From Bryobacterales bacterium (GTDB lineage Bacteria > Acidobacteriota > Terriglobia > Bryobacterales > Bryobacteraceae), in assembly GCA_003167275.1 (NCBI GenBank), contig PMTT01000542.1:1-57906 (forward strand): a stretch of 57,906 bases of DNA. Direction: 5' to 3'. The first letter of the stretch is position 1, and each line of letters starts with the position of its first letter. The translations under genes and the position numbers were made by a program. Shown here piece after piece: positions 17,619-36,779 of the stretch. The notes under the pieces were generated by a model. That model was not told where the DNA came from, searched no databases, and was given only the letters and a program-made list of their open reading frames with translations.

Positions 17619-20216
17619 TCAGTATTCGGCGTCGTCGTCGGCCCCTTCGGGCAGAATTGTCGCCCGCGAAAGGTGCAGAACGCTCTGCAAGCATCCACAC
17701 ATGGTCTTTCGAACGGTTAACGTCTCCCGCCGCGTGTCCACTGTCACCAACAGCTTTCTTTCGTTCAGCCGCTTGTTCATCGTCTGCTCGGATATCTCCA
17801 GGGACTCGCCCCGGTCACGGCCGGCAATCTGTATCAATCGATAAGCGGCGGCCGGTTCCAGGTAGAGGTCGTCACCATCCACCCAGCCGATGCAATCGCC
17901 CTGGGGCTCCGAATTCCCTGAGGCTGTGCGGCGCCACCCGCAAGCTTCTGGTACGCGATCCGGCGGACCACCTCGCCGCCCAGCCAGATGGGAACGTCCC
18001 GACGACAGCGATGCGCGGAGCAGCGAAAGGTACCTGCCGACCGGATCGGTGGCGGCCTGGTGTTTGCCCTGTTCGGCAGCCGCCATCCCAAGCGCCGCCC
18101 AGCAACGGTACGCCAGATTTTGCGCTTCCCCGGGTTCCAGTGCTTCGCTTGCATCGGCGTATTCCAGGTACAACTCGAATCCGGCTTGCAGGCTGGCGAC
18201 TATTCCCGGCGTACGGGCGTGGGCCGCACTCTCCAGGGATTTGACTCGAAGCTCATCGACCCGTCGGACTAGTGCCGCCTGTAGCTCCTCATACCGCCCA
18301 GCAATCCATTGAATGAAGCCGATCATGGCGACGATGTAGTGGCCTTCCAATGCGTCTTTCTGGCAGGTCGTGAGCTTGTCAAGGTCGATCCCACCCTTGC
18401 TAAGTTCCAAGATCAGCAGCCGTGCGCGAACGGACTGCCCGCGAGGTATTTCTTCTCCAGTGGACAGGATCAGGCAGCGCGGTGGTTTTGATTCGCGCAA
18501 CCTCGTGGTCGAATCCATTCGTCCGCGCCCGGCGTGGTTTCCAGCCGCCCGGAACACGCGATCCGCCGCAGCATGGTAGCGCTGGATGTCCGCGTTGCTG
18601 CCGTTTGGGGCGAAATCATCAACGGCGAGCAGGGTATCCTTCGCCTGAAAAGCCAACGACTCAAGCGAGTTTGCCGTGGAAGACCAGGATCCCGGCAGAT
18701 GCCGGCTGTCAAACTTAACCCCGAAGTGTTGCTGATGCAATGCCGCCAACTCCGTCTTGAACGTGCCGGTCGGGCCAGCCAAGTGGAGCGAGAAATCTGT
18801 CCCGCCGAATGCAGCCCGATAGGTGGCTGCCAGGATCGGGAAACAGATCGAGGCCGGCCCAACCTCGCAGAGCCGCAGGCTTGCCCGAACAGACGCGATG
18901 AGAATGTTTCGATCTTCCGTTGTACGAAGGTCGAAAGAGTTCATTGGACCCGATAACCGTACCCCAACATCAGGCAGAGCGCCGGCTTTTCCAACGCCCC
19001 CGCCCGCATGGAGATAGACCCAAACGCCGTCAATCTTGCGCCAACCGGTGTGGGCATAAAAGCGGCGCTCTTCGGTCGCCATGGAGAAGGACTGGATCGC
19101 GGTTCGCGCGTACTCGCGTTGGTTTGGATACGTGATCGCCGCGGGCCCGATCTTATCGATAGGCCAGTCCATGCTGGCAAACTCTTGAGCAGGAAGTGTG
19201 AAATCAAAATGACCGCCTAGGATTTCGCCCTTGATTTCGAATTCACGGGCCGTGCTCACGCCATCGTCCAGTAGAATGTTCGCTATGATCGCTGCCTGAT
19301 AGTTAGTCAGCTTGATTTCCGTGATTTGCTGCTGGCCCTTGGTTGCGATGCGATACATGCCGTCGGGCCGCGACCGGAAGTCGGGCGGTTGTACAATCTG
19401 AAGCCGGGTGGCAGGAACGGCACGGTCGAAGAGTTCCAGAACCTTCGTGGGTCCCCACAAGGCGAGCAAGTCATCCACGCCGTTGACCGGACAGTCTTCT
19501 GGCAAGTTTATGAAATCCACCTCGCTCTTCCGCGTAGCGAGTTCGCGAGCGATCCCGGTCCGTGCCCACTTCACGCTGTCGTTGGTTTGGACATTCGCGT
19601 CGAAGAGGATGCGCACTCGCCGTCCAGTCCACTGAATCCGGTCGAAATCGGAGATGACTCCCTTGACGTCGACGCGTTGGCCCTTGGGACCGCCGATCTT
19701 GGCAACGATGCCACGCCACGCCCAAACTCCAGCGATGCCGATAGGGATGAAACGTGGGTAGTCGGTCCCGTGGTTGGCGAGGCGCCAAAGGGCCAGCGCC
19801 TTTTTCTCGCCCTCGACGATAATGATCGGAATCTTGACGTCGGCAAGCTGTGCCGGTGTAACACATGGAGGGATGTACAGCCGGTTCCAGCTTTTTGGAG
19901 CGCCGAGGTATTTCGCCTGTGGCCTGGCCTTGCCATCTTTCCCCTGCACCCAGTCTGGATTGTCACGCCGTATACGGTAGTTGACCGGGCCAGGCTGGCC
20001 TGGCCAGTAGTTTGTAAAAAGGACGCCGGCGCAGTCCCGGCTTCCCTTTTGCCCTACGATCTCCCGGCCCTCAATGGTGTCCACGCGACGGAGCAAGGCT
20101 TGATCCGCAATGTCGCGTGAAATCCAGGAGGCGATAAAGGCGATGTAGTCCTCCTCCGTAAGAGGCTTACCCCAAGGCGGGGGAATGTGTTCGAGACCGG
20201 GAACTGCCGCCGTCAC
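17619..20216 (-). CDS. primase/helicase-like replication protein (Toprim-like N-terminal region, P-loop NTPase C-terminal region)
   Basis: 865 aa. IPIIIVEGEKKALAL is a Toprim-like acidic motif (as I recall for DUF3854). The Walker A-like motif is HLAGPTGTFKTE (DUF927-like from memory). This architecture is typical of integrative elements. Confidence 0.65.
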   Translation of the reverse strand: MTAAVPGLEHIPPPWGKPLTEEDYIAFIASWISRDIADQALLRRVDTIEGREIVGQKGSRDCAGVLFTNYWPGQPGPVNYRIRRDNPDWVQGKDGKARPQAKYLGAPKSWNRLYIPPCVTPAQLADVKIPIIIVEGEKKALALWRLANHGTDYPRFIPIGIAGVWAWRGIVAKIGGPKGQRVDVKGVISDFDRIQWTGRRVRILFDANVQTNDSVKWARTGIARELATRKSEVDFINLPEDCPVNGVDDLLALWGPTKVLELFDRAVPATRLQIVQPPDFRSRPDGMYRIATKGQQQITEIKLTNYQAAIIANILLDDGVSTAREFEIKGEILGGHFDFTLPAQEFASMDWPIDKIGPAAITYPNQREYARTAIQSFSMATEERRFYAHTGWRKIDGVWVYLHAGGGVGKAGALPDVGVRLSGPMNSFDLRTTEDRNILIASVRASLRLCEVGPASICFPILAATYRAAFGGTDFSLHLAGPTGTFKTELAALHQQHFGVKFDSRHLPGSWSSTANSLESLAFQAKDTLLAVDDFAPNGSNADIQRYHAAADRVFRAAGNHAGRGRMDSTTRLRESKPPRCLILSTGEEIPRGQSVRARLLILELSKGGIDLDKLTTCQKDALEGHYIVAMIGFIQWIAGRYEELQAALVRRVDELRVKSLESAAHARTPGIVASLQAGFELYLEYADASEALEPGEAQNLAYRCWAALGMAAAEQGKHQAATDPVGRYLSLLRASLSSGRSHLAGRRGGPPDRVPEACGWRRTASGNSEPQGDCIGWVDGDDLYLEPAAAYRLIQIAGRDRGESLEISEQTMNKRLNERKLLVTVDTRRETLTVRKTMCGCLQSVLHLSRATILPEGADDDAEY

Positions 20217-21023: not shown

Positions 21024-23639
21024 TTACTCGACCGGATCCGATTGGTTTGCTTGGTCCCGCTGATGTTTCAGCTCTCTTTCCTCTCTCTTGCGTACCATCG
21101 ATAGACTGTTGCCAATTTGGTCGCTGACGAGTTTCCTTGACGCGAACGTTAAGGCCTCGCTCCACCCCTTCGCTGGGGTACCCTTGAGCGATTCCGTTTT
21201 TCCAGTTCTCCAGTTTCCTGGCACTTCATAAAGTCCAGATGGATCGCTCGACATCGCTGTGTCCAAATGACCACAGATTGACGTCAGCACTTCTGCCTTC
21301 TTCCAGCTTGCCGGGTTCTCGCGCCAGTCGGGCGCATGTCTGGAGACGATCGCCGCAATCGCTCTGTGGCGGTCCATGTCGGCCTCGAAGCCGTGACGGC
21401 GCGGCGCCGTGACTTTTCCAATTTCGGAGCTGGTTGGACTCTCGGATACGCGGTCAACACCAGCAATTCCGCGGCTGCCCTCCGCCTTCAGGTCCGCAAG
21501 CACTTGCAAAAGCCTACGGTATCTCCTGTATTCCTCGGAATGCTCGATCTTGCTCTGTATACTGTCGGGTAGCTCAGCGTGAGCGCTGGCGGGGAGCAAC
21601 CAGTTGTCCAGCAGGCCAGCCTGTTCCACATAGCTCCTCAGGAACCGGAGGCACTCTGATTCATAGCCTTCTATGGTTAGATCCATTCGGGCTCCCAGCT
21701 CAAACCCCTCTACAGCGAATGCGACGAAGACTCGCAAAACCAGGCCGAGCAGCAGTGCCTCCGCGGCCTCGAATTCCCGGATCGAGCACTTCTTCTCAAA
21801 GAAGGCGTCTTCGGCACGCAGTCGTTCGGCGATTATCCCCGCCCTAACCGGTTCGGGGAAGGCAGGGTGGAACTCGTACATCAATCTCGGCAAGCGAATA
21901 TCAACAACCAGTTCGTTGCCGAATCCCCGTTTGATCAAAGGGTTGGAGCGATGCCACACTTCTCGCCCGGTGGCAATGGGAGTCAGGTGTTTGGATCCAT
22001 CAGAGCGCGGCAGGGCTGTCTCTCCCCGGCTAAGGTCGGGCGACATGTCGGCTTCCTCGTTCTTCTTCTCGGCCTCACGAACCAGCTTCGCCGCAACTTC
22101 CATCCAGTATTCGCGCCGTTCACCTAATCGCATTTGAAGCATCGGTCTGGGGATGAAGGTTAAGCAGTTCTCCGCGACGATGTTCAAGATCGAGTTCTCG
22201 AATTCGCGGAGGCGCCGCTCGCGTGCATCGGCTCCGCGCTCGGTCCCCATACCGACCGCCAACATGGTCGCCCTACAATCGAAGACTCCGGCGCACAGGT
22301 CGAGAGTCCAGTCACGAATCGCCTCAGAAGTGGCGTCCTCGGCGGGCATTCTGTCCAATAGGTTCGAATTCAAGGGCACGAGGAGTTGGCTCACCAACCG
22401 AGACATAGCAGCCCACTTGCTCCGTTCTGGGTCTTCCCTTGCAAACAGATCTTTGTAAGGCCGACCTTCTACCACGGGTTCTCTTAGCGGAAGACCCTTC
22501 CCCCTGCTCGGGGCGGGCTCCGGATTCGATGCTTCTATCGCGGCCGCTACTGAGCCTGCTATGCCGAAATGGCTGTCATCGATCTCTCCCCAGTCTGGGC
22601 TCATATCAGCCAAGGCTTGGATCGCCGTACAACTGCTTGTGATCCCCTCAATCGCCTGGAGGTCCAGGAAGGCCAGCGGTTGAACCGCGTCAGTCAACGT
22701 GCTCCTAAGAGCCTCAAGCGCCTTCCCCAAGTCGCCGGCGTCGCCTGCCCCAACCCAATGTGCTGCCTCCATGGCGCTGGTAAGCGGTAGAAGCAGCCCA
22801 TTCATCTCGGCACCGAGCGCATCAAGCACCTGTGCAACGGAGTCGGAAGCCCGGGCAGCCTCGCTGATTAAACTCATCCCTTCAAACGCGCCGGACATTC
22901 CCGTCAAGCCTGGCGGCAAAGACTCATCGCTGTCGCTGAAGATCTGTAGCTTAGAAGCCGCCTGTGCAGTTCGCACCGCCGCGAGCATTAGCTCGTTCGC
23001 CGCGGCTGCGCTGCCGGTCGCCGTCATCTGCTTTGCCCTTTGTAGATCGGCTTGGCGGATCGCGGGGCTATCGGAGGAGTGATCAGCTTCCGCCCTTTCG
23101 GCCGGCGATTGGGGAGATTCTGAGTACTCCTTTGCGCCTTCTGCGACGAGTTCCGCCTGAATCCTCTCCCGCGCCGAACGTTCACACTGTGTCGCTGATG
23201 CCTCCCAGATATCAGGGAAGGATCCTCCGGAGGAACGATCCTGAAACAACCGACTCTCGTTGCTGAGGCTCTCGCGCCGGAGAAAGTGTAGCCACGCCCG
23301 AGTGCAGGGATCAACTTCGGACAGGCCCGCGGGAACCGCCTCGGGGTCATTGATCACCATCGGTTGTTCTCTCCACGTGGGATGGTGCTCTAATGGCTCC
23401 GGAGCGGGCATGGGTGGAATGCCCAGTTCCTCGATGGCACGCGCTGCCAGAAGACTGAACGTTACCCAGGCTGGCTCAGTTTGCGGAGTCCTCGGCCTCA
23501 GACGCCAGATACCGGATTGTTCCCGGCCAGGGACTGAATATAAATCGGCTCGCAATGAAATGGATCGCAAGCGAAACGGATCGGCGCCTCGACGGAAGCG
23601 CTCCGCCAGTCCCAGCAACGTCCCTATGCCGCTCACCAC
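21024..23639 (-). CDS. large hypothetical protein (871 aa), no recognisable domain
   Basis: Long ORF with balanced, acidic, helix-rich composition unlike the Arg/Pro-rich antisense ORFs. The start is uncertain. Confidence 0.6.
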   Translation of the reverse strand: MVSGIGTLLGLAERFRRGADPFRLRSISLRADLYSVPGREQSGIWRLRPRTPQTEPAWVTFSLLAARAIEELGIPPMPAPEPLEHHPTWREQPMVINDPEAVPAGLSEVDPCTRAWLHFLRRESLSNESRLFQDRSSGGSFPDIWEASATQCERSARERIQAELVAEGAKEYSESPQSPAERAEADHSSDSPAIRQADLQRAKQMTATGSAAAANELMLAAVRTAQAASKLQIFSDSDESLPPGLTGMSGAFEGMSLISEAARASDSVAQVLDALGAEMNGLLLPLTSAMEAAHWVGAGDAGDLGKALEALRSTLTDAVQPLAFLDLQAIEGITSSCTAIQALADMSPDWGEIDDSHFGIAGSVAAAIEASNPEPAPSRGKGLPLREPVVEGRPYKDLFAREDPERSKWAAMSRLVSQLLVPLNSNLLDRMPAEDATSEAIRDWTLDLCAGVFDCRATMLAVGMGTERGADARERRLREFENSILNIVAENCLTFIPRPMLQMRLGERREYWMEVAAKLVREAEKKNEEADMSPDLSRGETALPRSDGSKHLTPIATGREVWHRSNPLIKRGFGNELVVDIRLPRLMYEFHPAFPEPVRAGIIAERLRAEDAFFEKKCSIREFEAAEALLLGLVLRVFVAFAVEGFELGARMDLTIEGYESECLRFLRSYVEQAGLLDNWLLPASAHAELPDSIQSKIEHSEEYRRYRRLLQVLADLKAEGSRGIAGVDRVSESPTSSEIGKVTAPRRHGFEADMDRHRAIAAIVSRHAPDWRENPASWKKAEVLTSICGHLDTAMSSDPSGLYEVPGNWRTGKTESLKGTPAKGWSEALTFASRKLVSDQIGNSLSMVRKREERELKHQRDQANQSDPVE

Positions 23640-24300
23640 GCCCCTTGAACCCGCCAGCTTTAGGAAGATGAGGCCGCCCGGGGCGGGAGCCTTTCACCGG
23701 GTTCATGAGGCCCGGCTAGGCGGCCAAACAACAATTCTACACCGATTTGTTTGGGCGGTTCTGCGGTGCCTGACACCCGCAATTCCGGCCGCTTCTTCTC
23801 CGCACTTCCGGAACCTCGAAAGCGGAAGAGGGGCGTGCCAATCTAATCTCAGAGCTGCAACGTGAAGTGCTTCGAAGCGCCGACTTCGGTCACAGCCTTA
23901 CTGATTGCGCTGAGGAGGAACGCCGCGGCAATTGTGCCCGCATGACTGCGCGACCTGGGGTTAGCGCTTGAAGGGAACCCCGACTGTCGGGCGACGACTT
24001 CAGAGGGGATAATGGCCAGCCCAAGCGCGAAGAATCGTCGCGGGAGAATGCAGCCTTTGGCGGAAGTACCCACCGTCATTCCGAGAAGGCTAGTAGTCGA
24101 CCCCCAACCCCAGGTGCAATACGTAATCGTACCCCAAGATGGTGTGGCCTCCATCCGCCTTTGTGCAACAGCTTGATATTTCTGCAAGAATTGCGCACAA
24201 TGGTAGTCGTGCACTGTGAATGGCGAGGTGTGCCCCGATGTGGACGCCCGCTTGCGTGTCCTTCCTGGTATCATCTGACCGCGTCTACAAGGAGCGTCGG

Positions 24301-25533
24301 ATGGGTCTAATGCTCCAAGACATCATCGATTCGACAAAGCTGGATCCGGCGTTTTGCGCGGAGTTGGTTGGAGTCGCTACAGACCAATTCCAAGAGTGGC
24401 TAAGCGGGGCACCCTTGCCGCGATTTGTTATCCCCGAACTGTCGTCGATCCTCGGCGTGCCAGAAAAGACGTTGATTTCGTGCGGCGGCAGCAAGGCGCG
24501 CTCAACCGATAGCGGTGTGCTGGCGCCGGCGGTGTGGTACAAGCTGCGGAACGAGCGCTTGACGACGAGCGACAGAGAGATGGTCGGGTTGGTCCGTAAG
24601 CTCGGCTATTATATTGACCAACTCAAATCGATCCGGAACACGCGGGTTCGGCGGTTCGAAGTAGTCTTCAGGACGGTCCGCGCCGAAGTCGACAGGACTC
24701 AGCCGCCTACACTCCAGGGAAGGGCTGCAGCCAGGGCCTTCCGAAGCACGACCGAATTGGAGCACGGCGAGCAAGGCATTGGTGAGTGGGTCCGACCTAC
24801 CCTCAGAAAACTCGGCGTGCTCGTCGTCGAGAGTCCGATCAAGTCCGACGTCGAGGGCTGTACTTTCATGGTCGGATCAGAGGCGTCCCTGACACCCTGC
24901 TTGTTCGCCAACTCGTACAAGTCTACGTGGTTTCGGCGCAACGCCGTGATAATGCACGAACTCGCGCACGCTATCCTTGACCTCGAGAATGACCCCGTAG
25001 CACTCGACTTCAAAGACGGGACTGAGCAAACAGAGCTGTCGGAACTCCGGGCCCAAGTATTTGCTCAAGAAAGTCTTGTGCCTCGTTCTGTGCTGGTGCG
25101 TATGGCAAACCGATTTGGGCTGAAGTGGTCGGATCTCACGGCGGAAAATGTCGCCCGTCTAGTTGCCGATTCGCACGTCGAGAAAGGACTCGTCCTGAAG
25201 GCAGCTCTCGATCATGAATTGATCGATGCGGCGCAGTTTGAGCGGTACTCTAGTTATGAGTGCGATCCTCTGGTCCGCAGTCTCAGTTCGCACGCGCTCA
25301 CTACCAGAGAATTCCTGAAGAAGCATGCGGCAGAGTCACCCAAGTGGGTCGCTGAGAACAGGAACACCAACGTCGGGCGCCGCCCGCTCCGTCTACCCTC
25401 AACATACGTCGCGGAGGTCGTCGGAGCGTTCAATGACGGTGAGATAAGCATGGGCAAGGCTGCTGAGATGCTGATGGTGGAAAAGGAAACGTTTCGCGCG
25501 CGTTTTTGCAGCGAACAGCAGCTCATTGGATAA
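24301..25533 (+). CDS. XRE-type HTH fused to an ImmA/IrrE-family zinc metallopeptidase
   Basis: RBS AAGGAG lies before ATG 24301. The N-terminal HTH-like segment is FCAELVGVATDQFQEWLSG. The HEXXH motif is NAVIMHELAHAIL. Confidence 0.8.
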   Translation: MGLMLQDIIDSTKLDPAFCAELVGVATDQFQEWLSGAPLPRFVIPELSSILGVPEKTLISCGGSKARSTDSGVLAPAVWYKLRNERLTTSDREMVGLVRKLGYYIDQLKSIRNTRVRRFEVVFRTVRAEVDRTQPPTLQGRAAARAFRSTTELEHGEQGIGEWVRPTLRKLGVLVVESPIKSDVEGCTFMVGSEASLTPCLFANSYKSTWFRRNAVIMHELAHAILDLENDPVALDFKDGTEQTELSELRAQVFAQESLVPRSVLVRMANRFGLKWSDLTAENVARLVADSHVEKGLVLKAALDHELIDAAQFERYSSYECDPLVRSLSSHALTTREFLKKHAAESPKWVAENRNTNVGRRPLRLPSTYVAEVVGAFNDGEISMGKAAEMLMVEKETFRARFCSEQQLIG

Positions 25534-26258: not shown

Positions 26259-26307
26259 TTATCCGGAAGAGACGAGTGGCGTCGGGCTTGAAATCTACGA
26301 GAAGATA

Positions 26308-26329
26308 GCTACCGATATTGCGGAATAAC
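26308..26329 (-). repeat. dif-like site copy 0 (inverted orientation): GTTAT-TCCGCA-ATATCGGTAGC
   Basis: The plus strand reads gctaccgatat-tgcgga-ataac. The 11-bp arm is the same as in the five sites at 31.7-45 kb. Confidence 0.7.
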
Positions 26330-28408: not shown

Positions 28409-28511
28409 CCGCTCTGGAGAAGCTCATGTCCTGTCAGCAATGCGGTAAAAGAGATCTTGGAGTCGGACCGATTCTGTTTGGATATTCTTGCAACGCCAAA
28501 GGAGTTCTTGC

Positions 28512-30707
28512 ATGCTGCGACACGAATGCGTTCTTGTTTGTTTTCTGCTCGTAATCGGAGTGCCTGCCGCCAGCGCGCAGTGTTACACGTTTTCGAGCGG
28601 TTCGGCGGCGAGCTTAACCGTTAACATCACCCACCTTCCGCCTCCGACCCAATCGACGGTCGTTCCATGGATATATGACTACTCTTCTGATTCTGGGTTG
28701 GTTGCGGCTGTCAGTCTAAAGGTCGGCCAGACGGTGTATACTCCTGACCCAACGTCCGTTGCTCCCTTGATCGATGTGTCAGTTGGAGACGATCTCAGCT
28801 CCAGTTTCTCCTCAATGGACTTCAACGTGGCCTTTTCCAGCCCGAACTACATCATCGCTGGCGGCCTAGCGTCGGCATACTGGAACGGAAATTATTTTCC
28901 GAACGGCAGTTTGCCAGCTACGCTCCCTTCGCTCTCCAGTGCCCAAGATCCAATTTTGATCGTCAACGTGATCGGTCCATCCGGCGTGATCGTTGACCAG
29001 ACGTATGCGCTGACCTCGGTCACGAGTTGTTCGACTACGCCTCCCCCGCGGAGCCCGTCCCGGATTACCTCCGCGGGTGGATCATTCCAATCGGCAGTCG
29101 TCGGCACCACCTTCGCCTCTCCATTGCAAGCCACGGTTACGGACTCGTCCGGCAATCCCATCAGCGGCGTGACTGTGACGTTCACTGCACCTTTCAGCGG
29201 CGCCAGCGTCACCTTGTCAAGCGGCTCGGCCATTACCAACGCAATTGGTGTCGCGAGCGTTTCGGCAACGGCAAATAACGTGGCGGGCGGCTACTTCATT
29301 ACGGCCACTGTAGGAGCGCTTTCAACGTCGTTCTCGCTGACAAACCTACCTGTTTCGGGGCTTCCCCTCGGTGGCGATCTTGCACAGGGCCAGTTCGCCA
29401 CACAAAGCAGTACCCTGCCAGGTACGCCGCCCGCGAGCGCCGCCGTTGATGGCAACACTGACGGGGCTTTCTTCGATGGATCAGTCACGGCAACGAGCTT
29501 CGAAGCCAACCCCTGGTGGGAGGTGGACCTCGGCTCGCCCCTCGCCATCAGTTCGATTGCGGTCTGGAACCGGACCGATTGCTGCGGCTCCCGGCTCGAC
29601 GACTATTGGGTCTTCGTTTCCAATACGCCGTTTCTGAACACGGATACGCCCGCGATTCTTCAATTCCGGCCTGGAACGTTCGCCAGCCACCAGACCACGG
29701 TGCCAAGCCCTTCCGCGACAATCGCCCTGGGGGTGCAGGGCCGTTACGTGCGAATTCAGCTCAACAATCCCAATTACCTGAGCCTGGCTGAGGTGCAGGT
29801 ATTCGGTGGTGTCAATCTTGGGCAAGGGAAGACCGCGACGCAGAGCAGCACCCTTCCCGGCACACCGGGAGCCGGCGCGGCCGTAGATGGGAACACGGAC
29901 GGCAGCTTTTCCGATGGATCAGTTACGGCCACGAACTTTGACGCCACTCCTTGGTGGCAAGTGGACCTAGGCACTTCCGCCTCTATCAGTTCGATTGTCG
30001 TCTGGAACCGAACAGATTGTTGCGTCGGTCGGCTTAGCGACTATTGGGTGTTTGTTTCCGACACGCCGTTTCTCCCGACCGATAACCCGGCCACGCTACA
30101 GTTCCGTCCGGGGACCTTTGCAAGTCGCGAGACCAGTGCACCTAATCCGTCAACCGCAATTGCGGTTGGAGGGCAAGGGCGTTACGTCCGGGTGCAGTTG
30201 AACACCTCGAACTATCTGAGCCTTGCCGAAGTGCAGGTGGTCGGGATCATGAATGCGTCAAGTAGCAATGACATCGCATTGGGTAAATCTGCGAACCAGA
30301 GCAGCACGCTCCCCGGCACACCGCCAGCCGGAGTAGCCGTGGACGGCAATATCGATGGCAACTTCTTCGACGGCTCTGTTACGGCCACGAACATCGAGTC
30401 CAATCCGTGGTGGCAAGTTGATCTGGGTGCTTCACAAACCGTGAACTCGGTTATGATCTGGAATCGGACGGACTGTTGCAGCTCGCGTTTGGGCGACTAT
30501 TGGGTTTTCGTCTCGAACACACCGTTCCTCGATACGGATACACCTTTGACGCTGGCTTTCAGGCCGGGTACAGCGAGCAGTCATCAAACGGCCGCTCCCA
30601 ACCGGTCCGTGAGCATTCCGTTCGGCATACCCGGGCGTTACATTCGCGTGCAGTTGAACGGCCGCGACTACCTCAGCTTGGCTGAGGTGCAGGTGTCCGG
30701 ACAGTAG
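28512..30707 (+). CDS. secreted protein: Ig-like (Big_1-like) domain plus three tandem F-type-lectin/discoidin-like (galactose-binding-like) domains
   Basis: RBS AAGGAG precedes ATG 28512 and the signal peptide is CFLLVIGVPAASA. The block ATQSSTLPGTP..AAVDGN.DG.F.DGSVTAT....PWW.VDLG...I..I.VWNRTDCC..RL.DYWVFVS.TPF...RY.R.QLN...YLSLAEVQV occurs three times. Confidence 0.8.
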   Translation: MLRHECVLVCFLLVIGVPAASAQCYTFSSGSAASLTVNITHLPPPTQSTVVPWIYDYSSDSGLVAAVSLKVGQTVYTPDPTSVAPLIDVSVGDDLSSSFSSMDFNVAFSSPNYIIAGGLASAYWNGNYFPNGSLPATLPSLSSAQDPILIVNVIGPSGVIVDQTYALTSVTSCSTTPPPRSPSRITSAGGSFQSAVVGTTFASPLQATVTDSSGNPISGVTVTFTAPFSGASVTLSSGSAITNAIGVASVSATANNVAGGYFITATVGALSTSFSLTNLPVSGLPLGGDLAQGQFATQSSTLPGTPPASAAVDGNTDGAFFDGSVTATSFEANPWWEVDLGSPLAISSIAVWNRTDCCGSRLDDYWVFVSNTPFLNTDTPAILQFRPGTFASHQTTVPSPSATIALGVQGRYVRIQLNNPNYLSLAEVQVFGGVNLGQGKTATQSSTLPGTPGAGAAVDGNTDGSFSDGSVTATNFDATPWWQVDLGTSASISSIVVWNRTDCCVGRLSDYWVFVSDTPFLPTDNPATLQFRPGTFASRETSAPNPSTAIAVGGQGRYVRVQLNTSNYLSLAEVQVVGIMNASSSNDIALGKSANQSSTLPGTPPAGVAVDGNIDGNFFDGSVTATNIESNPWWQVDLGASQTVNSVMIWNRTDCCSSRLGDYWVFVSNTPFLDTDTPLTLAFRPGTASSHQTAAPNRSVSIPFGIPGRYIRVQLNGRDYLSLAEVQVSGQ

Positions 30708-30753: not shown

Positions 30754-31671
30754 CTACACTCGCAACTTGATCCCGTCGTTGGGCGCGTGGACCAGATCCT
30801 GCTTTGTGCCCAAATAGCGCTCGGTCGTTTGAACCGACGCGTGGCCCAGGAGCAACTGGATCTGCCCCAGTTCTCCGCCGGCCGCCCGACACAACTTCGC
30901 GAAGCTGCGCCTCAAATCGTGGGGGGCAATTCCGGGAACACCAGCGGCCGCCGCATACGGCCGCAAGAGCTGCCAGATGACCTTCTCGGACAAGCGGTCG
31001 CCGCAGACCTCGTCCCCGCGGTTGATGGGGCGGAGTACGTAACCCTCCACGATCCCGGCCGCCGCTGTCCAGGCGTCGATGGCGACCTTTACCCAGGTCG
31101 GCACCGGAATCGTGCGCACCCGCCCGTGCTTTCCGACGAGGTCTACGACGCACCAGCGGTTGTCCCGTTGCTGGATGTGCCTCATCGTCAGGGCGGCCAC
31201 CTCAGACCGTCGAAGCCCGCAGCCCAGGAGGATGGCTAGCATCGCTCGGTCACGCAGTCCCTTCTTGGTGGCGATGTCCGGCGCGCTCAGGAGTCGTTGG
31301 GCCTGTTCCAGGGATAACCAGTTGCCGACCCTTATGCCCTTCGACGCGACGCCCTTTACGCGCGTGATGCCGGCGGCCAGTTCCGGCGCCAGCAACCCGT
31401 TGTCAGCCGCCTCGATCGCGAGCTTCCGGACGGCGGTGATCCGGACGTTGATCGAGACGGACCCGAGCCCGCGGCTCTCAAGGACGACGCGCCAAGCGTT
31501 CACGGCCGCCTTCGTGAAGCCTGGCCGAGCTTCCTGGCCGAACCAGGAAATAAACTCGTCCAGGCCGAGGTTGTAGACCCTTCGGGTAATCGGGGAGGAA
31601 ACGCTGTCAAGGACCAACGCCTTCAGCCGGTGGAATTCGTTGTTCTGTGGAACCACAATCAAATCAGTCAT
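30754..31671 (-). CDS. XerC/XerD-like tyrosine recombinase
   Basis: 305 aa. Motifs are GCGLRRSEVAAL (Arg), APHDLRRSFAKL (HxxR) and LLGHASVQTTERYL (His...Tyr). dif-like site 1 lies directly upstream of its RBS. Confidence 0.9.
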   Translation of the reverse strand: MTDLIVVPQNNEFHRLKALVLDSVSSPITRRVYNLGLDEFISWFGQEARPGFTKAAVNAWRVVLESRGLGSVSINVRITAVRKLAIEAADNGLLAPELAAGITRVKGVASKGIRVGNWLSLEQAQRLLSAPDIATKKGLRDRAMLAILLGCGLRRSEVAALTMRHIQQRDNRWCVVDLVGKHGRVRTIPVPTWVKVAIDAWTAAAGIVEGYVLRPINRGDEVCGDRLSEKVIWQLLRPYAAAAGVPGIAPHDLRRSFAKLCRAAGGELGQIQLLLGHASVQTTERYLGTKQDLVHAPNDGIKLRV

Positions 31672-31680
31672 TTAGGTCCT

Positions 31681-31702
31681 CTTAATGGGCATTATCGGTA
31701 GC
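31681..31702 (+). repeat. dif-like site copy 1: CTTAA-TGGGCA-TTATCGGTAGC
   Basis: Read directly. It starts 10 nt upstream of the recombinase ATG (31671) and overlaps the RBS region. Confidence 0.7.
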
Positions 31703-31946
31703 TACGTCATGTGGACACTACCTCGGAGCCGCGGGGTACATCAAGTCAATAGTCGCAGACCGGTGCTCCCGGAACAGAGCTCCCAAAACGACGGGTCGTG
31801 AGGGGAATGACCGATTACTGGTGGGCTGTTCTCGCCAGGAATTGACTCGCGGCTGGATCGGCGCTCTGTCCGAGTCGCGCGTAACCCAGCCAGAACTGCG
31901 TTGGTCGAGGTCGACGAGCGGCCCTTGCATAGAGCTTATCCGAGAC

Positions 31947-31990
31947 GTGGGCGCGGAGGGACTCGAACCCCGGACCTCCTGCGTGTGAAA
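31947..31990 (-). repeat. decayed tRNA 3'-half-like segment (anticodon loop to acceptor; Val-CAC-like)
   Basis: The reverse complement is CTTTCACACGCAGGAGGTCCGGGGTTCGAGTCCCTCCGCGCCCA. The T-loop TTCGAGT and acceptor 3' strand are present, but there is no matching 5' half or D-arm and the T-stem is imperfect. Confidence 0.6.
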
Positions 31991-32374
31991 GAGCGGCGTC
32001 GTCTCCAACGGCTCTTTTGGTTCTTACCTTCTGCTGTTGCTTCCAATGATCTGAAGCACCTGCTGTTGCCGGACGAATAAAGCTAATGCCCCCAACGATC
32101 CGGATTTTTGCACAGTTCTGACACGGTCCGAGAGCGGCAATCAATGCCGTTAAGCGGAGCGGGGAGTCCGGCCTTGTAGAGGGCATCGAACTATCGATAA
32201 TGTGGAGGAACCGGAGAGCCCGCGTCGGACAAGCCAGCGTGGGGTCCATGGACTTCCTTCTTTTTGCGCGTTAGCGGGCATCGAACAATACCGTGGGTAT
32301 TCCCGACGGCGGCAGATAGCCGGGTTGGGCTTTGAGATAACATCATTGATAGGCTTGGTCTAAAGAAACGGTGC

Positions 32375-33268
32375 ATGCTGACGCGGCATCCGCCGGAGGC
32401 GAATGGTGTGAACCTTAAATCCCTGTTGCGAGAATCGGACGAGATGACCGTTCAGCAGTGGCAGGCGTTTTTTCACGGGGTGTATGGTGCCCGAAATGAA
32501 GAACGCTTCCCGGCAGAATACGGCCTTTCGCGGATGTGGTTGCATTTGGTACAAGATATGGCGGCGCTGGCAAAGGGTATTCGCAAAAATGACGTCGCCC
32601 GGATGCTTCGGATGCTGCCACGCCTGTTTTGCTGGCTCTGCGGTTTTTGCACGAAGGCTGGATTTGAACTCGAAGAAATCGTGTGGCACTTCTTCCCGTA
32701 TGTCTGCCCAACATGTTGGAGTCCGACGTGTGCGTGCGGCGCCAACAAGAGGGTGTTTAGAGACGCGCCCCAGAAGGACGAAAAGACCTTGGCCGAGTTT
32801 AGGGAGGCGAACGCCGAGAAACGGCCTTCGACGCTTGATGGATTCGTCGTTATGTTTGCAGATGTGTATGGAAACCACTCCGAGTCGGGGAATCTGACCG
32901 ATGTCTACCTGCATTTCAGCGAGGAGGTTGGAGAAGTCGCCGAATGGATCAGAGTCGTCGAGAGCCTGAGTGATGGTCGGTCAGAAGCTCAGCAAGGTCT
33001 TACTTCAGAACTTGCCGACGTGTTTTCCTGGATGTGCAAATTGTGTTGGCGGATTAACTGCAATCTGCAAGGCTTCGGACCTTGGGCGGAGCACCAGTTC
33101 GGTAACGCGATTGATCAACGGCGGTTTGAAATTCGCTTTGCAGCCATTACCTCCCTGCAGTATGGTAATGGCTGCCCGGGTTGTGGACAGGCCGTTTGCG
33201 CAAGACAGTGCGAGGGATGGGACACTCGTTTGGCTAAGGCCAGCCATCAGGGCGGGGTGGTGGATTGA
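32375..33268 (+). CDS. tandem MazG-like (all-alpha NTP pyrophosphohydrolase) protein, each half followed by a Cys cluster
   Basis: The second half has the MazG signature LHFSEEVGEVAEWIR ... LTSELADVFSWMCKL. The first half aligns (LHLVQDMAALAKGIR) but lacks the acidic residues. The Cys clusters are CPTCWSPTCAC and CPGCGQAVCARQC. The start could instead be the downstream MTVQQW. Confidence 0.65.
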   Translation: MLTRHPPEANGVNLKSLLRESDEMTVQQWQAFFHGVYGARNEERFPAEYGLSRMWLHLVQDMAALAKGIRKNDVARMLRMLPRLFCWLCGFCTKAGFELEEIVWHFFPYVCPTCWSPTCACGANKRVFRDAPQKDEKTLAEFREANAEKRPSTLDGFVVMFADVYGNHSESGNLTDVYLHFSEEVGEVAEWIRVVESLSDGRSEAQQGLTSELADVFSWMCKLCWRINCNLQGFGPWAEHQFGNAIDQRRFEIRFAAITSLQYGNGCPGCGQAVCARQCEGWDTRLAKASHQGGVVD

Positions 33269-33320
33269 CGGGAACGTGAACAAATCAGCGAAGCTCTTTT
33301 CGCGCCTTTCTCCGACCAAT

Positions 33321-35576
33321 TCATAGGAATAGTGCCAATTGTTTTGGGCGCAGATCCACGTCGTTTTCTAATTCCAAAAGATCACTCGCTGCTTTCGCGA
33401 CGCGACCCATGCGGTTGAGGTCCATGTCTGGCGCGACAAAGACGTAACAAGTCCATAGGTTCATGTGAGCAGAATAGATCCGGCGGTACTGCTCTTCGTC
33501 TCGGTGAATTCTCGTAGTGATTGGATCAACACCCACGTATTGGCGAATTCGTTGTAGCCCTGGAGCTCTTGCCGCACAATAGAAGATCAGGTCGTCAGCG
33601 TGGACTCCGGCCTTGCCAGCGATCTCATTTTCAATTTTTGCGCGACCAGCCAGAGTGAACCATCCCTTCCCAGTTAGAAGTGTCAGTCGGTCCTGATAGT
33701 GGCTCCGATCAGGCTCACTTTCTCGCAACACGGGCGCAGCGAAGCTCTGCTTCCACACGTCTCTGCCGTTTGTACCAACAACCATCTCCACTAGTTTCTT
33801 CGCCAGCGGTCGTCCTGAGTTCCGCAAGAAATCCAGCAGGTCAATGTCGCCCATCGACTCGACCATTGGCTCAGTAAGTCGCGGCTTTCGTTTCGTCGAG
33901 AGAACATTGTAGACCGCTTTGCCGATCATGGCTCCGGCGGCGACTTTGACCGGATGGGCATACACTTTCAAGAACAGTGCAAATCGTTCGCGGAGAATCG
34001 ACTCGATCGCGAATTTGGCATCCACACGCACGCCGTGATGACCATACAACTCAGCGCGAACATCAGTGCGTTGGATGCTAAACTTCCTGTAAATCGCCGA
34101 GTCAATTCCATGATCGAGGCCACAATAGTAGGCGTCGCGATCAACGTAATCAAGAATATCGGCCCCGCAAGGCCCCTCTACGAGTTGAGAGATCCACGCT
34201 TGCTTCTCTGAATTGGGCTGCTTGTCAAAATGGGCCAATACGGCCAAGCCGACTTGACTCGAAGCGAGTAGCCGACCCAGCATGGATTGTGGCGATAGAA
34301 GGAGCCGTTCAATGCGCTCCTCATTTTCGTCGTGCCTCTTGAAAATACTCATCTCGTCCTCAAGCGCGTGCCCGTACGGAATGTGTGTCACGTCGTGCAA
34401 AAGGGCGTATGCCCTGACCACCTGCCGTTCATGACTGCCAAAGTGGGTGCCTGTTCTTTCCGAAAAGCGTCGCACGATCTCGCTGGCAACGTGCATTGTC
34501 CCGACGGCGTGACTGAAGCGCGTATGCTCCGCGCCCGGGTATACGAGGTGTGAAGTTCCAAGCTGCCGTATCCATCGCAGGCGCTGAAATTCCGGCGTGT
34601 CCATTAAGTCCCATTCAAAGTCGCTCATCGTTATGTCTGAATGAACTGGATCGCGGACGACGTGTGGAAAGTAGCCTCCTAAACTGTGTGGCATATCGGT
34701 GCCGTCGCTCAAAGGTTCCATTCTTGCCTTTACCTCTCTTAACTCCACGAGCGCCTGCCGGGCGGAAGGCCGCTTCGTATCATCCAGTTCAAGGAGCGCC
34801 CGGAAGAATTCGGATACGTCCCTCCTCACTTTATTATTGAGCTGCTGAATCGTAGGCGGTGTCACGGCCAGCATAAGATCGGTGAACTTGCCATCGTCCG
34901 CGTCGGCCGCGTAGTCCCATGGGAAAAAATTTGTCAGGAGAAGATACCCCAACACACCTACGGCAAACACGTCATGCACGGGTATCGCCTCGCCCGGATA
35001 CCTCAACTTAGTTGGCGGACTAAACTTGGAAGAGCCGGCACCGAAAAACGTTTCGGCATCTGCTGGTTGGCCGCGTCCTTTGCACATTCCGAAGTCGACC
35101 AGGGTCACCGCAGGCATTGTGTCAAACTCATTTCCGACCAATATATTCGCGTCTTTCACATCGCGATGGCAGATCTGGGCTTCGTGGATATGCGACAGTG
35201 CGTCCAGAACCGCCTCGGCGATGTGGAGCATTCTCATCTGGCCGATAGTGTCAAATTGTTTCCGCTGCCGCCCGACCGCCACACGCAGGTTTTCCCCCTC
35301 AGCGAAACTCATGGCGATGTACGGCCGTTCTTCGAGTTTGCCAGCCCCTATAAATCTTGGAATTGATCGAAGGTTTAGTGGCGACAGGCGCTCTAGTGCC
35401 CATCCTTCATTTTCGAACCGCTGTGGGCCGAAGGCTTCACTGTCAGCACGCAGCCACTTCACGGCGAGCTTTTCGCCGGCCAAGTCCTCGACAAGGTACG
35501 TGTGGGCGTATGAACCGCTGCCCAAGAGCCGCAGTACTCGAAAGTTGTCGAACTTCGTAGGTTCTGGCGGGTTCAA
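33321..35576 (-). CDS. fusion protein: N-terminal Ser/Thr protein kinase + C-terminal SAMHD1-type HD-domain dNTP triphosphohydrolase-like domain
   Basis: Kinase motifs are LGSGSYAHTY, LAVKWL, CHRDVKDANILV and LVDFGMC. HD motifs are VRDPVHSDI...DTPEFQRLRWIRQLG..HLVYPGAEHTRFSHAVG, ALLHDVTHIPYGHALE and DILDYVDRDAYYCGL. This block order characterises SAMHD1/COG1078 enzymes. Confidence 0.85.
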   Translation of the reverse strand: MNPPEPTKFDNFRVLRLLGSGSYAHTYLVEDLAGEKLAVKWLRADSEAFGPQRFENEGWALERLSPLNLRSIPRFIGAGKLEERPYIAMSFAEGENLRVAVGRQRKQFDTIGQMRMLHIAEAVLDALSHIHEAQICHRDVKDANILVGNEFDTMPAVTLVDFGMCKGRGQPADAETFFGAGSSKFSPPTKLRYPGEAIPVHDVFAVGVLGYLLLTNFFPWDYAADADDGKFTDLMLAVTPPTIQQLNNKVRRDVSEFFRALLELDDTKRPSARQALVELREVKARMEPLSDGTDMPHSLGGYFPHVVRDPVHSDITMSDFEWDLMDTPEFQRLRWIRQLGTSHLVYPGAEHTRFSHAVGTMHVASEIVRRFSERTGTHFGSHERQVVRAYALLHDVTHIPYGHALEDEMSIFKRHDENEERIERLLLSPQSMLGRLLASSQVGLAVLAHFDKQPNSEKQAWISQLVEGPCGADILDYVDRDAYYCGLDHGIDSAIYRKFSIQRTDVRAELYGHHGVRVDAKFAIESILRERFALFLKVYAHPVKVAAGAMIGKAVYNVLSTKRKPRLTEPMVESMGDIDLLDFLRNSGRPLAKKLVEMVVGTNGRDVWKQSFAAPVLRESEPDRSHYQDRLTLLTGKGWFTLAGRAKIENEIAGKAGVHADDLIFYCAARAPGLQRIRQYVGVDPITTRIHRDEEQYRRIYSAHMNLWTCYVFVAPDMDLNRMGRVAKAASDLLELENDVDLRPKQLALFL

Positions 35577-35775
35577 TCGCTAATCTCCGGGCAGCAAACG
35601 CTGGCGAGGTCATGGTATATCCGACGCATCAGGCGTGAATACCCAGTTCAGCCCTCAATACCTATTGTGGCACGCCCGAGATCCTAGCCGCGATTCGGCA
35701 GTTGGCACTGCCGACTATGGATGATGGCCCCGTGGGCCTTTAGAAGCTCCCTAGCGGTCTCTTAGCCCTAGCGAT

Positions 35776-36255
35776 ATGATGAATCATCAGGAGGCAGGTT
35801 TGACACTGTACTGGGCAGGACCCTTATTTACACAGGCAGAAAGAATATGGAATCGCCGGTGTGCGAGCGCTCTGCGCCAGATGGGATATTCAGTTCTGCT
35901 GCCGCAAGAGGAAGCCATTCGATTCACGAATCCCGAGGGGTTCGATGCGAAGGGGATTGCCGAGCTCTGCTACCTGCAAGCTCTAGAGTGTGACGTCATG
36001 GTCGTGGTGCTCGACGGTGCAGACAGCGATAGTGGCGCTAGTTTGGAAGCTGGCATCAAGATCGGCCATAAGCGAGCATCGAATGTCGCGGGTATGATTA
36101 TCGGTCTTCGGACGGACTTCCGCGCATCGGAAGACGGGCAGCTCAACGCGATGTTCAGGTTGCTTGACAGGGTTGTCTATTTCCCGTCGTTCAATGAAGA
36201 CCCCGAGGCGCTTTGCGGGATGCTTCACCAAGCCATCCTCAGCTTGACGAAATGA
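35776..36255 (+). CDS. nucleoside 2-deoxyribosyltransferase-like (NDT/Rcl-DNPH1 superfamily) protein
   Basis: LTLYWAGPLFTQAERIWN is the hallmark N-terminal motif. The candidate catalytic Glu lies in DVMVVVLDGADSDSGASLEAGIKIG. Confidence 0.75.
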   Translation: MMNHQEAGLTLYWAGPLFTQAERIWNRRCASALRQMGYSVLLPQEEAIRFTNPEGFDAKGIAELCYLQALECDVMVVVLDGADSDSGASLEAGIKIGHKRASNVAGMIIGLRTDFRASEDGQLNAMFRLLDRVVYFPSFNEDPEALCGMLHQAILSLTK

Positions 36256-36383
36256 CGGATCTAACCTTACGACAGGTTTTGACACAGTCCAGCCGAACTG
36301 AAGGGGTTTTGGCGCAGTTTGTGTGAAAGCTTGAACCGCAGCCGGCCGATTAATCTAATAAACTATTTAGAATCAAGTGAAGA

Positions 36384-36428
36384 TGGTGGGCGCGGCAGGA
36401 CTCGAGCCTGCGACCTCCTGCGTGTGAA
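36384..36428 (-). repeat. tRNA 3'-half-like segment ending in CCA (Val-CAC-like), imperfect direct repeat of 31947-31990
   Basis: The reverse complement is TTCACACGCAGGAGGTCGCAGGCTCGAGTCCTGCCGCGCCCACCA. The T-stem GCAGG/CCTGC is perfect but the T-loop is CTC rather than TTC, and no 5' half is present. Confidence 0.65.
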
Positions 36429-36757: not shown

Positions 36758-36779
36758 GATATCCGTCAATATCGGTAGC
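36758..36779 (+). repeat. dif-like site copy 2: GATAT-CCGTCA-ATATCGGTAGC
   Basis: Read directly in a region with no convincing CDS. Confidence 0.7.

Follow-up and report, generated by a model that had tools for sequence, protein, structure and literature searches.

A stretch of 57,906 nucleotides from a Bryobacterales bacterium (GenBank assembly GCA_003167275.1, contig PMTT01000542.1), referred to here as the window, carries a cassette of three adjacent genes that are all predicted to encode nucleotide-acting proteins. The central gene codes for a protein kinase fused to an HD domain of the SAMHD1 type. It is flanked by a gene for a MazG-like protein and a gene for a member of the nucleoside 2-deoxyribosyltransferase (NDT) family. 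A first-pass annotation, made from the letters alone, had proposed that the three form a new nucleotide-depletion system, possibly directed against phages. The three open reading frames (ORFs) that it placed here were recovered, and every motif that it quoted is present in their translations. Its four fold assignments (kinase, HD, MazG and NDT) held up under profile searches and, for the fusion and the MazG-like protein, AlphaFold2 (AF2) models.

The three cassette proteins

The kinase half of the fusion is readily recognized. Pfam searches gave Pkinase (PF00069, residues 13-276) at 3.5e-29 and 102.4 bits against a cut-off of 31.7. The motifs GSGSYAHTY, LAVKW, HRDVKDAN and DFG are present, and K40, E57, H137-R138-D139, K141, N144, D161-F-G163 and D202 are invariant or nearly so in alignments of 16 and 93 sequences. 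The kinase had been described as catalytically complete, and both the Pfam score and the conservation of the catalytic residues in 93 homologues agree with this description. The activation-loop column of T176 holds serine or threonine in 15 of the 16 sequences, making T176 a candidate autophosphorylation acceptor.

The second half was matched by HD (4.3e-7) and HD_assoc_2 (1.4e-8, residues 523-739), and contains the motifs VRDPVHSDI, DTPEFQRLRWIRQLG, YPGAEHTRFSH, LLHDVTHIPYGH and DYVDRD. The C-terminal 450 residues match the solved proteins BT4208, Aq_1910, EF1143 and SAMHD1 with E-values of 1e-27 to 1e-17 (phmmer against the PDB: 2q14 1.1e-27, 2hek, EF1143 1.6e-26, SAMHD1 ~1e-17). R353, H356, H394-D395, H398, H403, H415 and D476 are invariant or nearly so in the 93 homologues. 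R353/H356 align with SAMHD1 R164/H167, and H394, D395, H398 and H403 with H206, D207, H210 and H215. Moreover, D327/Q331/R334 align with SAMHD1 D137/Q142/R145, and Q331 and R334 are at least 90% conserved. This SAMHD1 triad is guanine-nucleotide allosteric site 1, the roles of the SAMHD1 residues being established. The AF2 model of the fusion, built with 93 homologues, reached a predicted local distance difference test (pLDDT) score of 92.4 and a predicted template modelling (pTM) score of 0.80. In Foldseek, its best matches were EF1143 and SAMHD1 (~470-500 columns, TM 0.63-0.73, E ~1e-15).

Pfam, phmmer, the model and the residue alignment thus all agree with the SAMHD1-type HD domain annotated at first. 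Two other activities, (p)ppGpp hydrolase and HD-GYP phosphodiesterase, were considered and rejected, as the sequence, fold and allosteric residues are those of SAMHD1 and EF1143. Taken together, sequence and model predict a catalytically complete Hanks-type Ser/Thr kinase joined to a deoxynucleoside triphosphate (dNTP) triphosphohydrolase core of the SAMHD1/EF1143 type. The predicted chemistry of the HD half is the conversion of a dNTP to a deoxynucleoside and triphosphate. Both halves are under purifying conservation, and the conservation of catalytic residues across 16 and 93 homologues indicates that both are maintained as active enzymes.

The MazG-like protein reads as a true tandem MazG with a dead N-terminal repeat, a live C-terminal repeat and a cysteine cluster after each. 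Its halves were aligned to each other by hhalign with a probability of 99.1% (E = 4.6e-19), HFSEEVGEVAE of the C half falling over HLVQDMAALAK of the N half and both Cys clusters being in register. The acidic residues of the EExxE/ExxD motifs are invariant and occur in the second half only, and most of the eight cysteines are invariant as well. The first-pass annotation was right about the duplication and about the confinement of the acidic motifs to the second half. It gave both clusters as CxxC...CxC, however, and the second one is CxxCx4Cx3C. A profile built from ten members of the family matched the solved MazG protein 1vmg with its N half (6e-9), and iMazG, YpjD, 5ie9 and DCTPP1 with its C half. 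Three homologues score over the Pfam MazG cut-off (P0128 28.5, P0129 23.6 and P0127 22.6 bits). The AF2 model is all-alpha (pLDDT 83), and its Foldseek probabilities were highest for the MazG-type proteins DCTPP1, iMazG and 1vmg (0.8-0.9).

The third protein is a predicted N-glycosidase/transferase of the NDT family. It matched PF05014 at 48.9 bits against a cut-off of 28.8 (8.4e-13), and PF15891 was matched too. The motifs LYWAGPLF (Y12) and DSGASLEAG (nucleophile E91) are in register with those of the nucleoside 2-deoxyribosyltransferase 7m5h (2.2e-8), which was the only sequence match in the PDB besides the unnamed entry 7o62. These results uphold the earlier label of NDT/Rcl-like protein, the best alignment being with genuine NDTs. 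The Tyr/Glu nucleophile motif is kept in all five NDTs that are linked to kinase-HD or HD genes. DNPH1/Rcl and MilB were absent among the PDB sequence matches at E <= 1, which hints at a deoxynucleoside rather than a deoxynucleoside monophosphate (dNMP) as substrate.

The cassette and its island

The G+C content of the window drops to 0.53-0.56 over 32-36 kb, compared with ~0.60-0.63 on either side, as expected from the AT-richer cassette described in the first-pass annotation. The cassette is enclosed by two pairs of repeats (Table 1). The inner pair is a 43-nt direct repeat (31947-31989 and 36386-36428) with 86% identity between the copies. On the minus strand it corresponds to the anticodon loop (CAC), variable loop, T-arm and acceptor 3' strand of tRNA-Val, an identity established by reading of the sequence. 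Decayed tRNA-Val 3'-half repeats had been described around the module, and they are indeed there. Neither copy was called by ARAGORN or by Rfam at gathering and E <= 1 thresholds, so both are regarded as att-like 3' fragments rather than tRNA genes. The second bracket is a 20-23-nt repeat, which may represent the dif-like sites of the first-pass annotation. Its copies at either end of the cassette are direct copies of each other, since both are inverted relative to one further copy at 26306-26328, the common arm of the inverted pairs I1 and I2. Almost all of the coding capacity between the repeats is taken up by the three genes. With its low G+C, its tRNA-fragment repeats and the adjacent integrase, the cassette reads as a horizontally mobile module, located in an integrative island with a recombinase and a helix-turn-helix regulator. 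An att-like tRNA fragment was also looked for in four related cassettes (L082, L167, L168 and L169), and none was found.

The 199-bp divergent spacer and the 7-bp-stem hairpin reported earlier between the fusion and NDT genes were both found. The inverted repeat (35696-35713) has a 4-nt loop and a stem extendable to 8 bp, and is a possible operator. A consensus sigma-70 promoter was sought in the spacer and not found. Another candidate site for a regulator lies 5' of the MazG-like gene, where an 18-nt direct repeat occurs at 32177-32194 and 32272-32289 (TAGAGGGCATCGAACTAT / TAGCGGGCATCGAACAAT), 95 bp apart.

Outside the cassette, the island backbone includes genes for replication-type and peptidase proteins (Table 1). 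A gene at 28488-30707 (+), with the integrase on one side and the remainder of the island on the other, encodes a secreted-looking protein of 739 amino acids with Big_1 and three F5/F8 type C domains, built of ~300-nt DNA repeats spaced 438-456 nt.

Table 1. Features of the cassette and its surroundings in the window (a point marks features given no strand)
Feature	Position	Strand	Remarks
Kinase-HD fusion	33321-35576	-	751 amino acids, TTG start; ORF
Kinase domain, residues 13-276	34749-35540	-	PF00069; conserved catalytic columns
Predicted dNTPase core, residues 304-739: HD catalytic lobe and HD_assoc_2 C-terminal lobe	33360-34667	-	phmmer, Foldseek, SAMHD1 alignment
Tandem MazG-like gene	32375-33268	+	297 amino acids; convergent with the fusion, 52-bp gap
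Degenerate N-terminal MazG repeat with Cys cluster 1 (C111, C114, C119, C121)	32447-32737	+	acidic motif lost: LVQDMAALA
Predicted live C-terminal MazG repeat (E183, E184, E187; E212, D215) with Cys cluster 2 (C267, C270, C275, C279)	32822-33211	+	
NDT-family gene	35776-36255	+	159 amino acids; divergent from the fusion
Fusion/NDT divergent intergenic region	35577-35775	.	199 bp; read from the sequence
tRNA-Val(CAC)-like 3'-half fragment, left copy, att-like	31947-31989	-	direct-repeat family D3, sequence reading
tRNA-Val(CAC)-like 3'-half fragment, right copy	36383-36428	-	perfect T-arm/T-stem, encoded CCA; D3 repeat
20-23-nt repeat, left copy	31682-31704	.	adjoins the integrase start
20-nt repeat, right copy	36760-36779	.	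repeat search
Tyrosine recombinase	30754-31671	-	305 amino acids; lies immediately beyond the left repeats; an identical gene in L083 matches PF00589
DUF3854/DUF927 primase/helicase-like (replication-type) protein, island backbone	17619-20216	-	865 amino acids
Island-backbone protein	21024-23639	-	871 amino acids; no Pfam or PADLOC match
ImmA/IrrE-type Peptidase_M78 protein, island backbone	24220-25533	+	
Pkinase and TPR protein	10421-12673	-	750 amino acids; PADLOC PD-T4-6 models up to 1.5e-89; ~20 kb from the cassette

Distribution and partners of the fusion

The fusion belongs to an unnamed family of more than 100 full-length clusters, with proteins of ~740-765 amino acids and 35-73% identity. 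Homologues are patchily distributed over Acidobacteriota, Actinomycetota, Sphingomonadales, Chloroflexota, Verrucomicrobiota and others. The full-length fusion was absent from 50,697 phage records, 72,556 plasmids and IMG/VR, and the PHROG matches were weak. A phage or plasmid origin was rejected, as none of these collections held it.

When the MazG-like and NDT proteins were used as tblastn queries, no match was obtained in 80 genome loci that contain a fusion or HD homologue. The reading that the gene set is not conserved was overturned, however, by searching backwards from the MazG-like protein and by hidden Markov model scans. With the single MazG-like sequence as query, only 10 clusters were found among 5.8 billion. 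In this narrow clade, six members have readable context (the window, L082/L087, L169, L167, L168 and L170), and in every case a Pkinase gene is the adjacent gene or the next but one. It codes for a full kinase-HD fusion in four of them and for a Pkinase-TPR protein in another, while in L169 it is an HD gene truncated by the end of the contig. In L082/L087, the fusion and the MazG-like protein are 66% and 64% identical to those of the window, and the convergent layout is the same. A 945-residue kinase-HD protein is encoded convergently with the MazG-like gene in L168, between a Fic gene and a DUF4011/MTES_1575 helicase gene with IS1. The full trio recurs in the distant L167 in a gene order different from that of the window: genes for a 945-residue kinase-HD protein, the MazG-like protein and the NDT follow one another in the same direction, adjoined by relaxase and integrase genes. 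In L170, a Pkinase-TPR gene takes the place of kinase-HD, with one small gene between it and that of the MazG-like P0128. Hence, the MazG-like module may partner with kinases more generally.

The 945-residue proteins share the Pkinase, HD and HD_assoc_2 architecture but are only ~25% identical to the fusion of the window, while for their partners the identity to the counterparts there is 47-49% (MazG-like) and 65% (NDT). For L167 (5052-9621), the values are 65% for the NDT, 47% for the MazG-like protein and ~25% for kinase-HD (751 vs 945 residues). Either the partner pair has moved between two kinase-HD lineages, or kinase-HD evolves very fast.

Four independent lineages (the window, L167, L094 and L097) have an NDT gene next to kinase-HD. 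These NDT genes are themselves of two lineages, the second of which directly adjoins the fusion in L094 (PF05014, 4.9e-20) and L097. Among loci fetched without reference to partners, either partner was present in 4 of 29 fusion groups vs 1 of 99 HD-only groups (Fisher p = 0.009, in a small sample). The association of the partners with the fusion, as against HD-only genes, is clear. HD-only homologues are far more numerous and almost never have partners. The single HD-only locus with an NDT gene is L114 (522-3315). The NDT gene there (522-1043, -) overlaps an ORF (1039-1587, -) whose 183-residue product is of unknown family, and it is oriented divergently to a stand-alone HD gene of the SAMHD1 type. 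The locus may embody the same principle without the kinase.

The three-gene system of the first-pass annotation therefore survives in part. The linkage is real and the trio recurs, but it is not a conserved unit: ~25 of the 31 non-redundant fusion loci carry neither partner. The core is therefore the fusion, which is only rarely elaborated into the trio. Other accessories exist as well. In seven actinobacterial loci (L008 12275-12976, L010, L011, L013, L018, L096 and L102), a protein of ~250 amino acids with a weak, sub-threshold match to MobA-like NTP_transf_3 is encoded directly downstream of the fusion on the same strand, and P0100 (992 amino acids) has PF12804 fused to kinase-HD. The NTP_transf_3-like gene would be an alternative accessory, reminiscent of the nucleotidyltransferase partner in the defence system Clover. 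The MazG-like, NDT and nucleotidyltransferase-like genes are thus exchangeable nucleotide-acting accessories of the fusion. Split and fused versions occur in tandem in L081 (592-6048), where genes for a Pkinase protein (499 amino acids) and an HD_assoc_2 protein (390 amino acids) lie directly upstream of the full fusion P0004, which is 55% identical to that of the window.

The surroundings of the fusion are mobile and variable. The 149 ORFs around ~30 fusion loci were heterogeneous, with no single conserved partner. Neighbours include an integrase (L002), IS66 (L091), a ResIII/SNF2 helicase (L090) and a CHAT-MBL LmuA-like gene (L001). In the set formed by L001-L018, L082 and L089-L102, four neighbouring ORFs match PADLOC mad8 (best 1.5e-35) and one mad3 (3.7e-98), matches that are not assignable to particular ORFs. 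AP_endonuc_2 genes recur in four actinobacterial fusion loci and beside the MazG-like gene of L172.

A profile search brought up a wider MazG-like family, with 257 word-indexed matches and 272 representative clusters (at 50% identity) at E <= 1e-30. Many members are fused to cytidine/dCMP deaminase domains. In L175 (1718-14311), for instance, a deaminase-fused member lies between a TIR protein and a type I restriction-modification (R-M) system. Members in L177 (2267-9824) and L172 (7001-11372) are paired with a methyltransferase, and integrase, Schlafen and HEPN genes are near; such pairings occur with or without radical SAM. In L174 (6169-9404), the partners are a thymidylate-kinase-like gene and an HNH gene. 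Given the deaminase fusions and the TIR/R-M, Schlafen and HEPN neighbours, the module keeps the company of defence, mobile and nucleotide-altering genes. The tandem-MazG/Cys-cluster family looks like an uncharacterised, reusable nucleotide-targeting module.

Proposed nucleotide depletion and known systems

Humans and bacteria are both known to fight viruses by depleting nucleotides with SAMHD1-like enzymes. To our knowledge, the way in which the enzyme is silenced and switched on has been worked out for very few bacterial dNTPases. We give an even chance to the reading that the cassette is a phospho-switched defence which depletes dNTPs and acts against phages or other mobile elements. Active-looking enzymes, the linkage of the genes, the mobile and defence context and the precedent of Clover, dGTPases and dCTP deaminases all suggest it. 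The substrates of all the enzymes, the sense in which the kinase controls the dNTPase and the part played in defence are deduced from the folds, the genomic context and analogy.

In this mechanism, a single polypeptide would tie a Hanks-type kinase to an allosterically regulated triphosphohydrolase of the SAMHD1/EF1143 type, and the dNTPase would be kept off in the resting cell. Infection would alter the state of the kinase, the cue being either a protein of the phage or rising dNTP levels, which would make the HD domains oligomerise. The likely route is trans-autophosphorylation in the oligomer, for which T176 is the candidate site. The dNTPase would then drain the dNTPs. The tandem MazG, as a built-in pseudo-dimer with a single live site, would convert (d)NTPs to (d)NMP and pyrophosphate (PPi). 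The deoxynucleosides or dNMPs so formed would lose their base to the NDT enzyme, which would cut the glycosidic bond and give products that the salvage kinases of host and phage could not re-phosphorylate, and the pool would not be refilled by salvage.

A bolder version of this proposal is more doubtful, and is put forward tentatively. The fusion would be a phospho-switchable bacterial SAMHD1 that in some lineages has been joined by the tandem MazG and the NDT into a "dNTP demolition line" (dNTP to deoxynucleoside or dNMP, and then to free base and sugar), making depletion irreversible. The tandem-MazG/Cys-cluster protein would be an unrecognised and widely reused defence module. As part of this same tentative version, gating by the fused kinase would foreshadow the control of human SAMHD1 by cyclin-dependent kinase (CDK).

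Several results weigh against a defence by dNTP depletion. Most fusion loci have neither partner, and this includes relatives at 45-50% identity. Some lie among housekeeping genes such as those for UvrA (L007), RecA and UPRTase, and few of the 149 neighbours match PADLOC. The cassette has no obvious sensor domain and no phosphatase. The MazG-like protein of the window, taken alone, scores 19.2 bits with PF03819 against a cut-off of 22, and the E-values of its model in Foldseek are non-significant (~0.7, with probabilities up to 0.92). Furthermore, NDT-fold defence effectors can be NADases, as in retron Ec86 (PMC13276650). Overall, the first-pass interpretation stands with respect to folds, active sites and linkage, but not in its treatment of the trio as a unit.

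Among the other explanations, a Clover-like arrangement stands up best, though it is considered unlikely. In Clover, the CloA dGTPase is accompanied by the CloB nucleotidyltransferase, and the dNTPase is governed by this partner nucleotide enzyme and triggered by dTTP (PMC12265719). By analogy, kinase-HD would be a self-sufficient effector, and the MazG-like and NDT proteins would be regulators or safety devices that make or destroy its allosteric ligands, keeping the toxic dNTPase silent until infection or setting its threshold. The conserved residues of allosteric site 1 are in line with this, as are the many fusions without partners and the exchangeability of the partners (MazG-like, NDT or NTP_transf_3-like, the last also fused in P0100). 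The restraint of a dNTPase by a partner nucleotide enzyme is precisely what Clover displays (PMC12265719). In a variant, the HD oligomer would sense a phage-induced dNTP surge and the kinase would be the growth-arresting effector; stand-alone Ser/Thr kinases are defence effectors, and PD-T4-6 models match the kinase domain at 3.4e-33. However, a Pol-beta nucleotidyltransferase is absent from the window. As degradative folds, MazG and NDT naturally act on the very compounds that a dNTPase consumes or releases, and a catabolic chain fits them at least as well.

It is improbable, to a somewhat greater degree, that the family is non-immune. The fusion would then be a phospho-regulated governor of the dNTP pool in soil bacteria, acting in growth arrest, dormancy or the cell cycle, and its partners would be salvage or sanitation genes riding the island. 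The family is common in Actinomycetota and Acidobacteriota, which are rich in Hanks-type kinases, the phosphorylation of SAMHD1 offers a counterpart, and the loci among housekeeping genes fit as well. A governor of this kind is hard to reconcile with the patchy distribution and 35-45% identity across phyla, or with the low-G+C setting, att-like repeats and integrase and insertion-sequence neighbours. The likelier housekeeping enzymes are the far more numerous HD-only homologues, almost never accompanied by the partners, and the wider MazG-like family sits in clear defence islands.

The weakest explanation, for which the chances are slim, is base-specific pool remodelling or sanitation, in which the trio removes one canonical or non-canonical dNTP, destroying the modified dNTPs of modified-genome phages or supporting a modification of the island's own. 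In its favour, the same three folds cooperate in the Z-phages (PMC12884076), and enzymes of the MazG, DCTPP1 and DNPH1 families tend to prefer certain nucleotides or modified ones (PMC12884076, PMC10603095 and, in part, general knowledge). Methyltransferase, radical-SAM and thymidylate-kinase-like genes are moreover found as partners in the wider MazG-like family. On the other hand, none of the three genes between the repeats is a PurZ, polymerase or base-modifying gene, the HD domain is of the SAMHD1/EF1143 rather than the YfbR/DatZ type, and the phage collections lack the fusion.

If the proposed dNTP-depletion defence is true, a dNTPase with its own attached protein kinase would be a new regulatory principle in bacteria. 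It would offer a direct functional parallel, easily dissected by genetics, to the regulation of human SAMHD1 by phosphorylation, which is under debate. The recurrent MazG and NDT partners raise the question of whether they block salvage, so that depletion becomes irreversible, or tune allosteric ligands. The fusions and neighbours of the uncharacterised tandem-MazG/Cys-cluster family point to further nucleotide-targeting systems. The occurrence of the same gene set in unrelated bacteria makes the cassette a credible candidate for an antiviral nucleotide-depletion system. Immunity based on a SAMHD1-like dNTPase is already known in kind; the kinase-fused architecture is unreported and the linkage is reproducible.

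The cassette had not been recognised as a described defence system at first pass, and it does not correspond to a named one in PADLOC 2.0 or NCBIfam. There, the fusion is matched by generic kinase models only, far below family cut-offs, and the MazG-like and NDT proteins have no match. No description of a Pkinase-SAMHD1-like fusion was found in the literature. The domains named in a 2026 survey of dGTPase fusions are SAM, NLR, TIR, CARD, death and SIR2, with no kinase among them or elsewhere in the survey (PMC13519002), and the MazG-containing predictions of DefensePredictor are listed as unvalidated (PMC13092281).

Retron Ec86 likewise has an NDT-fold protein. Its NDT-like effector is an NADase that depletes NAD+ and is caged by the reverse transcriptase and multicopy single-stranded DNA (PMC13276650). 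In contrast, the NDT of the window has no PADLOC match and aligns best with genuine nucleoside deoxyribosyltransferases. In Z-genome phages, the same three folds are found together, as DatZ (HD), MazZ (MazG) and DmtZ (NDT family) remodel the phage's own dNTP pool (PMC12884076). These genes are phage-encoded, serve the phage, come with PurZ and a dedicated polymerase and lack a kinase, whereas the present genes are chromosomal or island-borne. None of the three is PurZ-like, and the HD domain (PF01966 and PF19276) is SAMHD1-like, unlike DatZ, a small HD protein of the YfbR type.

The defence kinases PD-T4-6, Stk2, MAD6 of MADS and PglW of BREX share a kinase domain with the fusion but lack an HD dNTPase. 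Matches to PD-T4-6 (3.4e-33), mad6 (1.7e-32) and NCBIfam MAD6, the best NCBIfam match (110 bits vs a cut-off of 460), are confined to residues 1-290 of the fusion, i.e., to the generic kinase fold, and do not extend over the full-length families. In Clover, a dNTPase effector is paired with a second, nucleotide-metabolising protein, as it would be in the cassette, and activity is governed by allosteric sites for nucleotides. The partners in the window are MazG-like and NDT proteins, however, instead of a Pol-beta nucleotidyltransferase, and a protein kinase is fused to the dNTPase. No nucleotidyltransferase Pfam match was obtained for the MazG-like and NDT neighbours; the weak MobA-like NTP_transf_3 neighbour occurs only in other fusion clades.

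Defensive dGTPases and dCTP deaminases deplete dNTPs (10.1101/2021.04.26.441389), and the outcome proposed for the cassette is the same, with phage replication starved of dNTPs. The dCTP deaminase is likewise one large protein, with a catalytic domain and an N-terminal "kinase" domain. The latter is a predicted nucleotide-binding kinase domain (10.1101/2021.04.26.441389), while that of the fusion is Hanks-type. These systems lack MazG and NDT partners, both of which the window cassette has. The HD half has no PADLOC dGTPase match, and it scores far below the cut-offs of the anti-phage dGTPase models (NF041026, 15.5 vs 400 bits; TIGR01353, 26.6 vs 152 bits).

With SAMHD1, EF1143 and BT4208, the fusion has in common the catalytic core and C-terminal lobe, both in sequence and in predicted fold, the metal and catalytic residues and the allosteric-site-1 triad. 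An equivalent of SAMHD1 T592 was not identified in the fusion. SAMHD1 is regulated by phosphorylation via a protein kinase, which is a CDK in humans. This control would be paralleled by the kinase of the fusion, which stands at the N-terminus in place of the SAM domain of SAMHD1.

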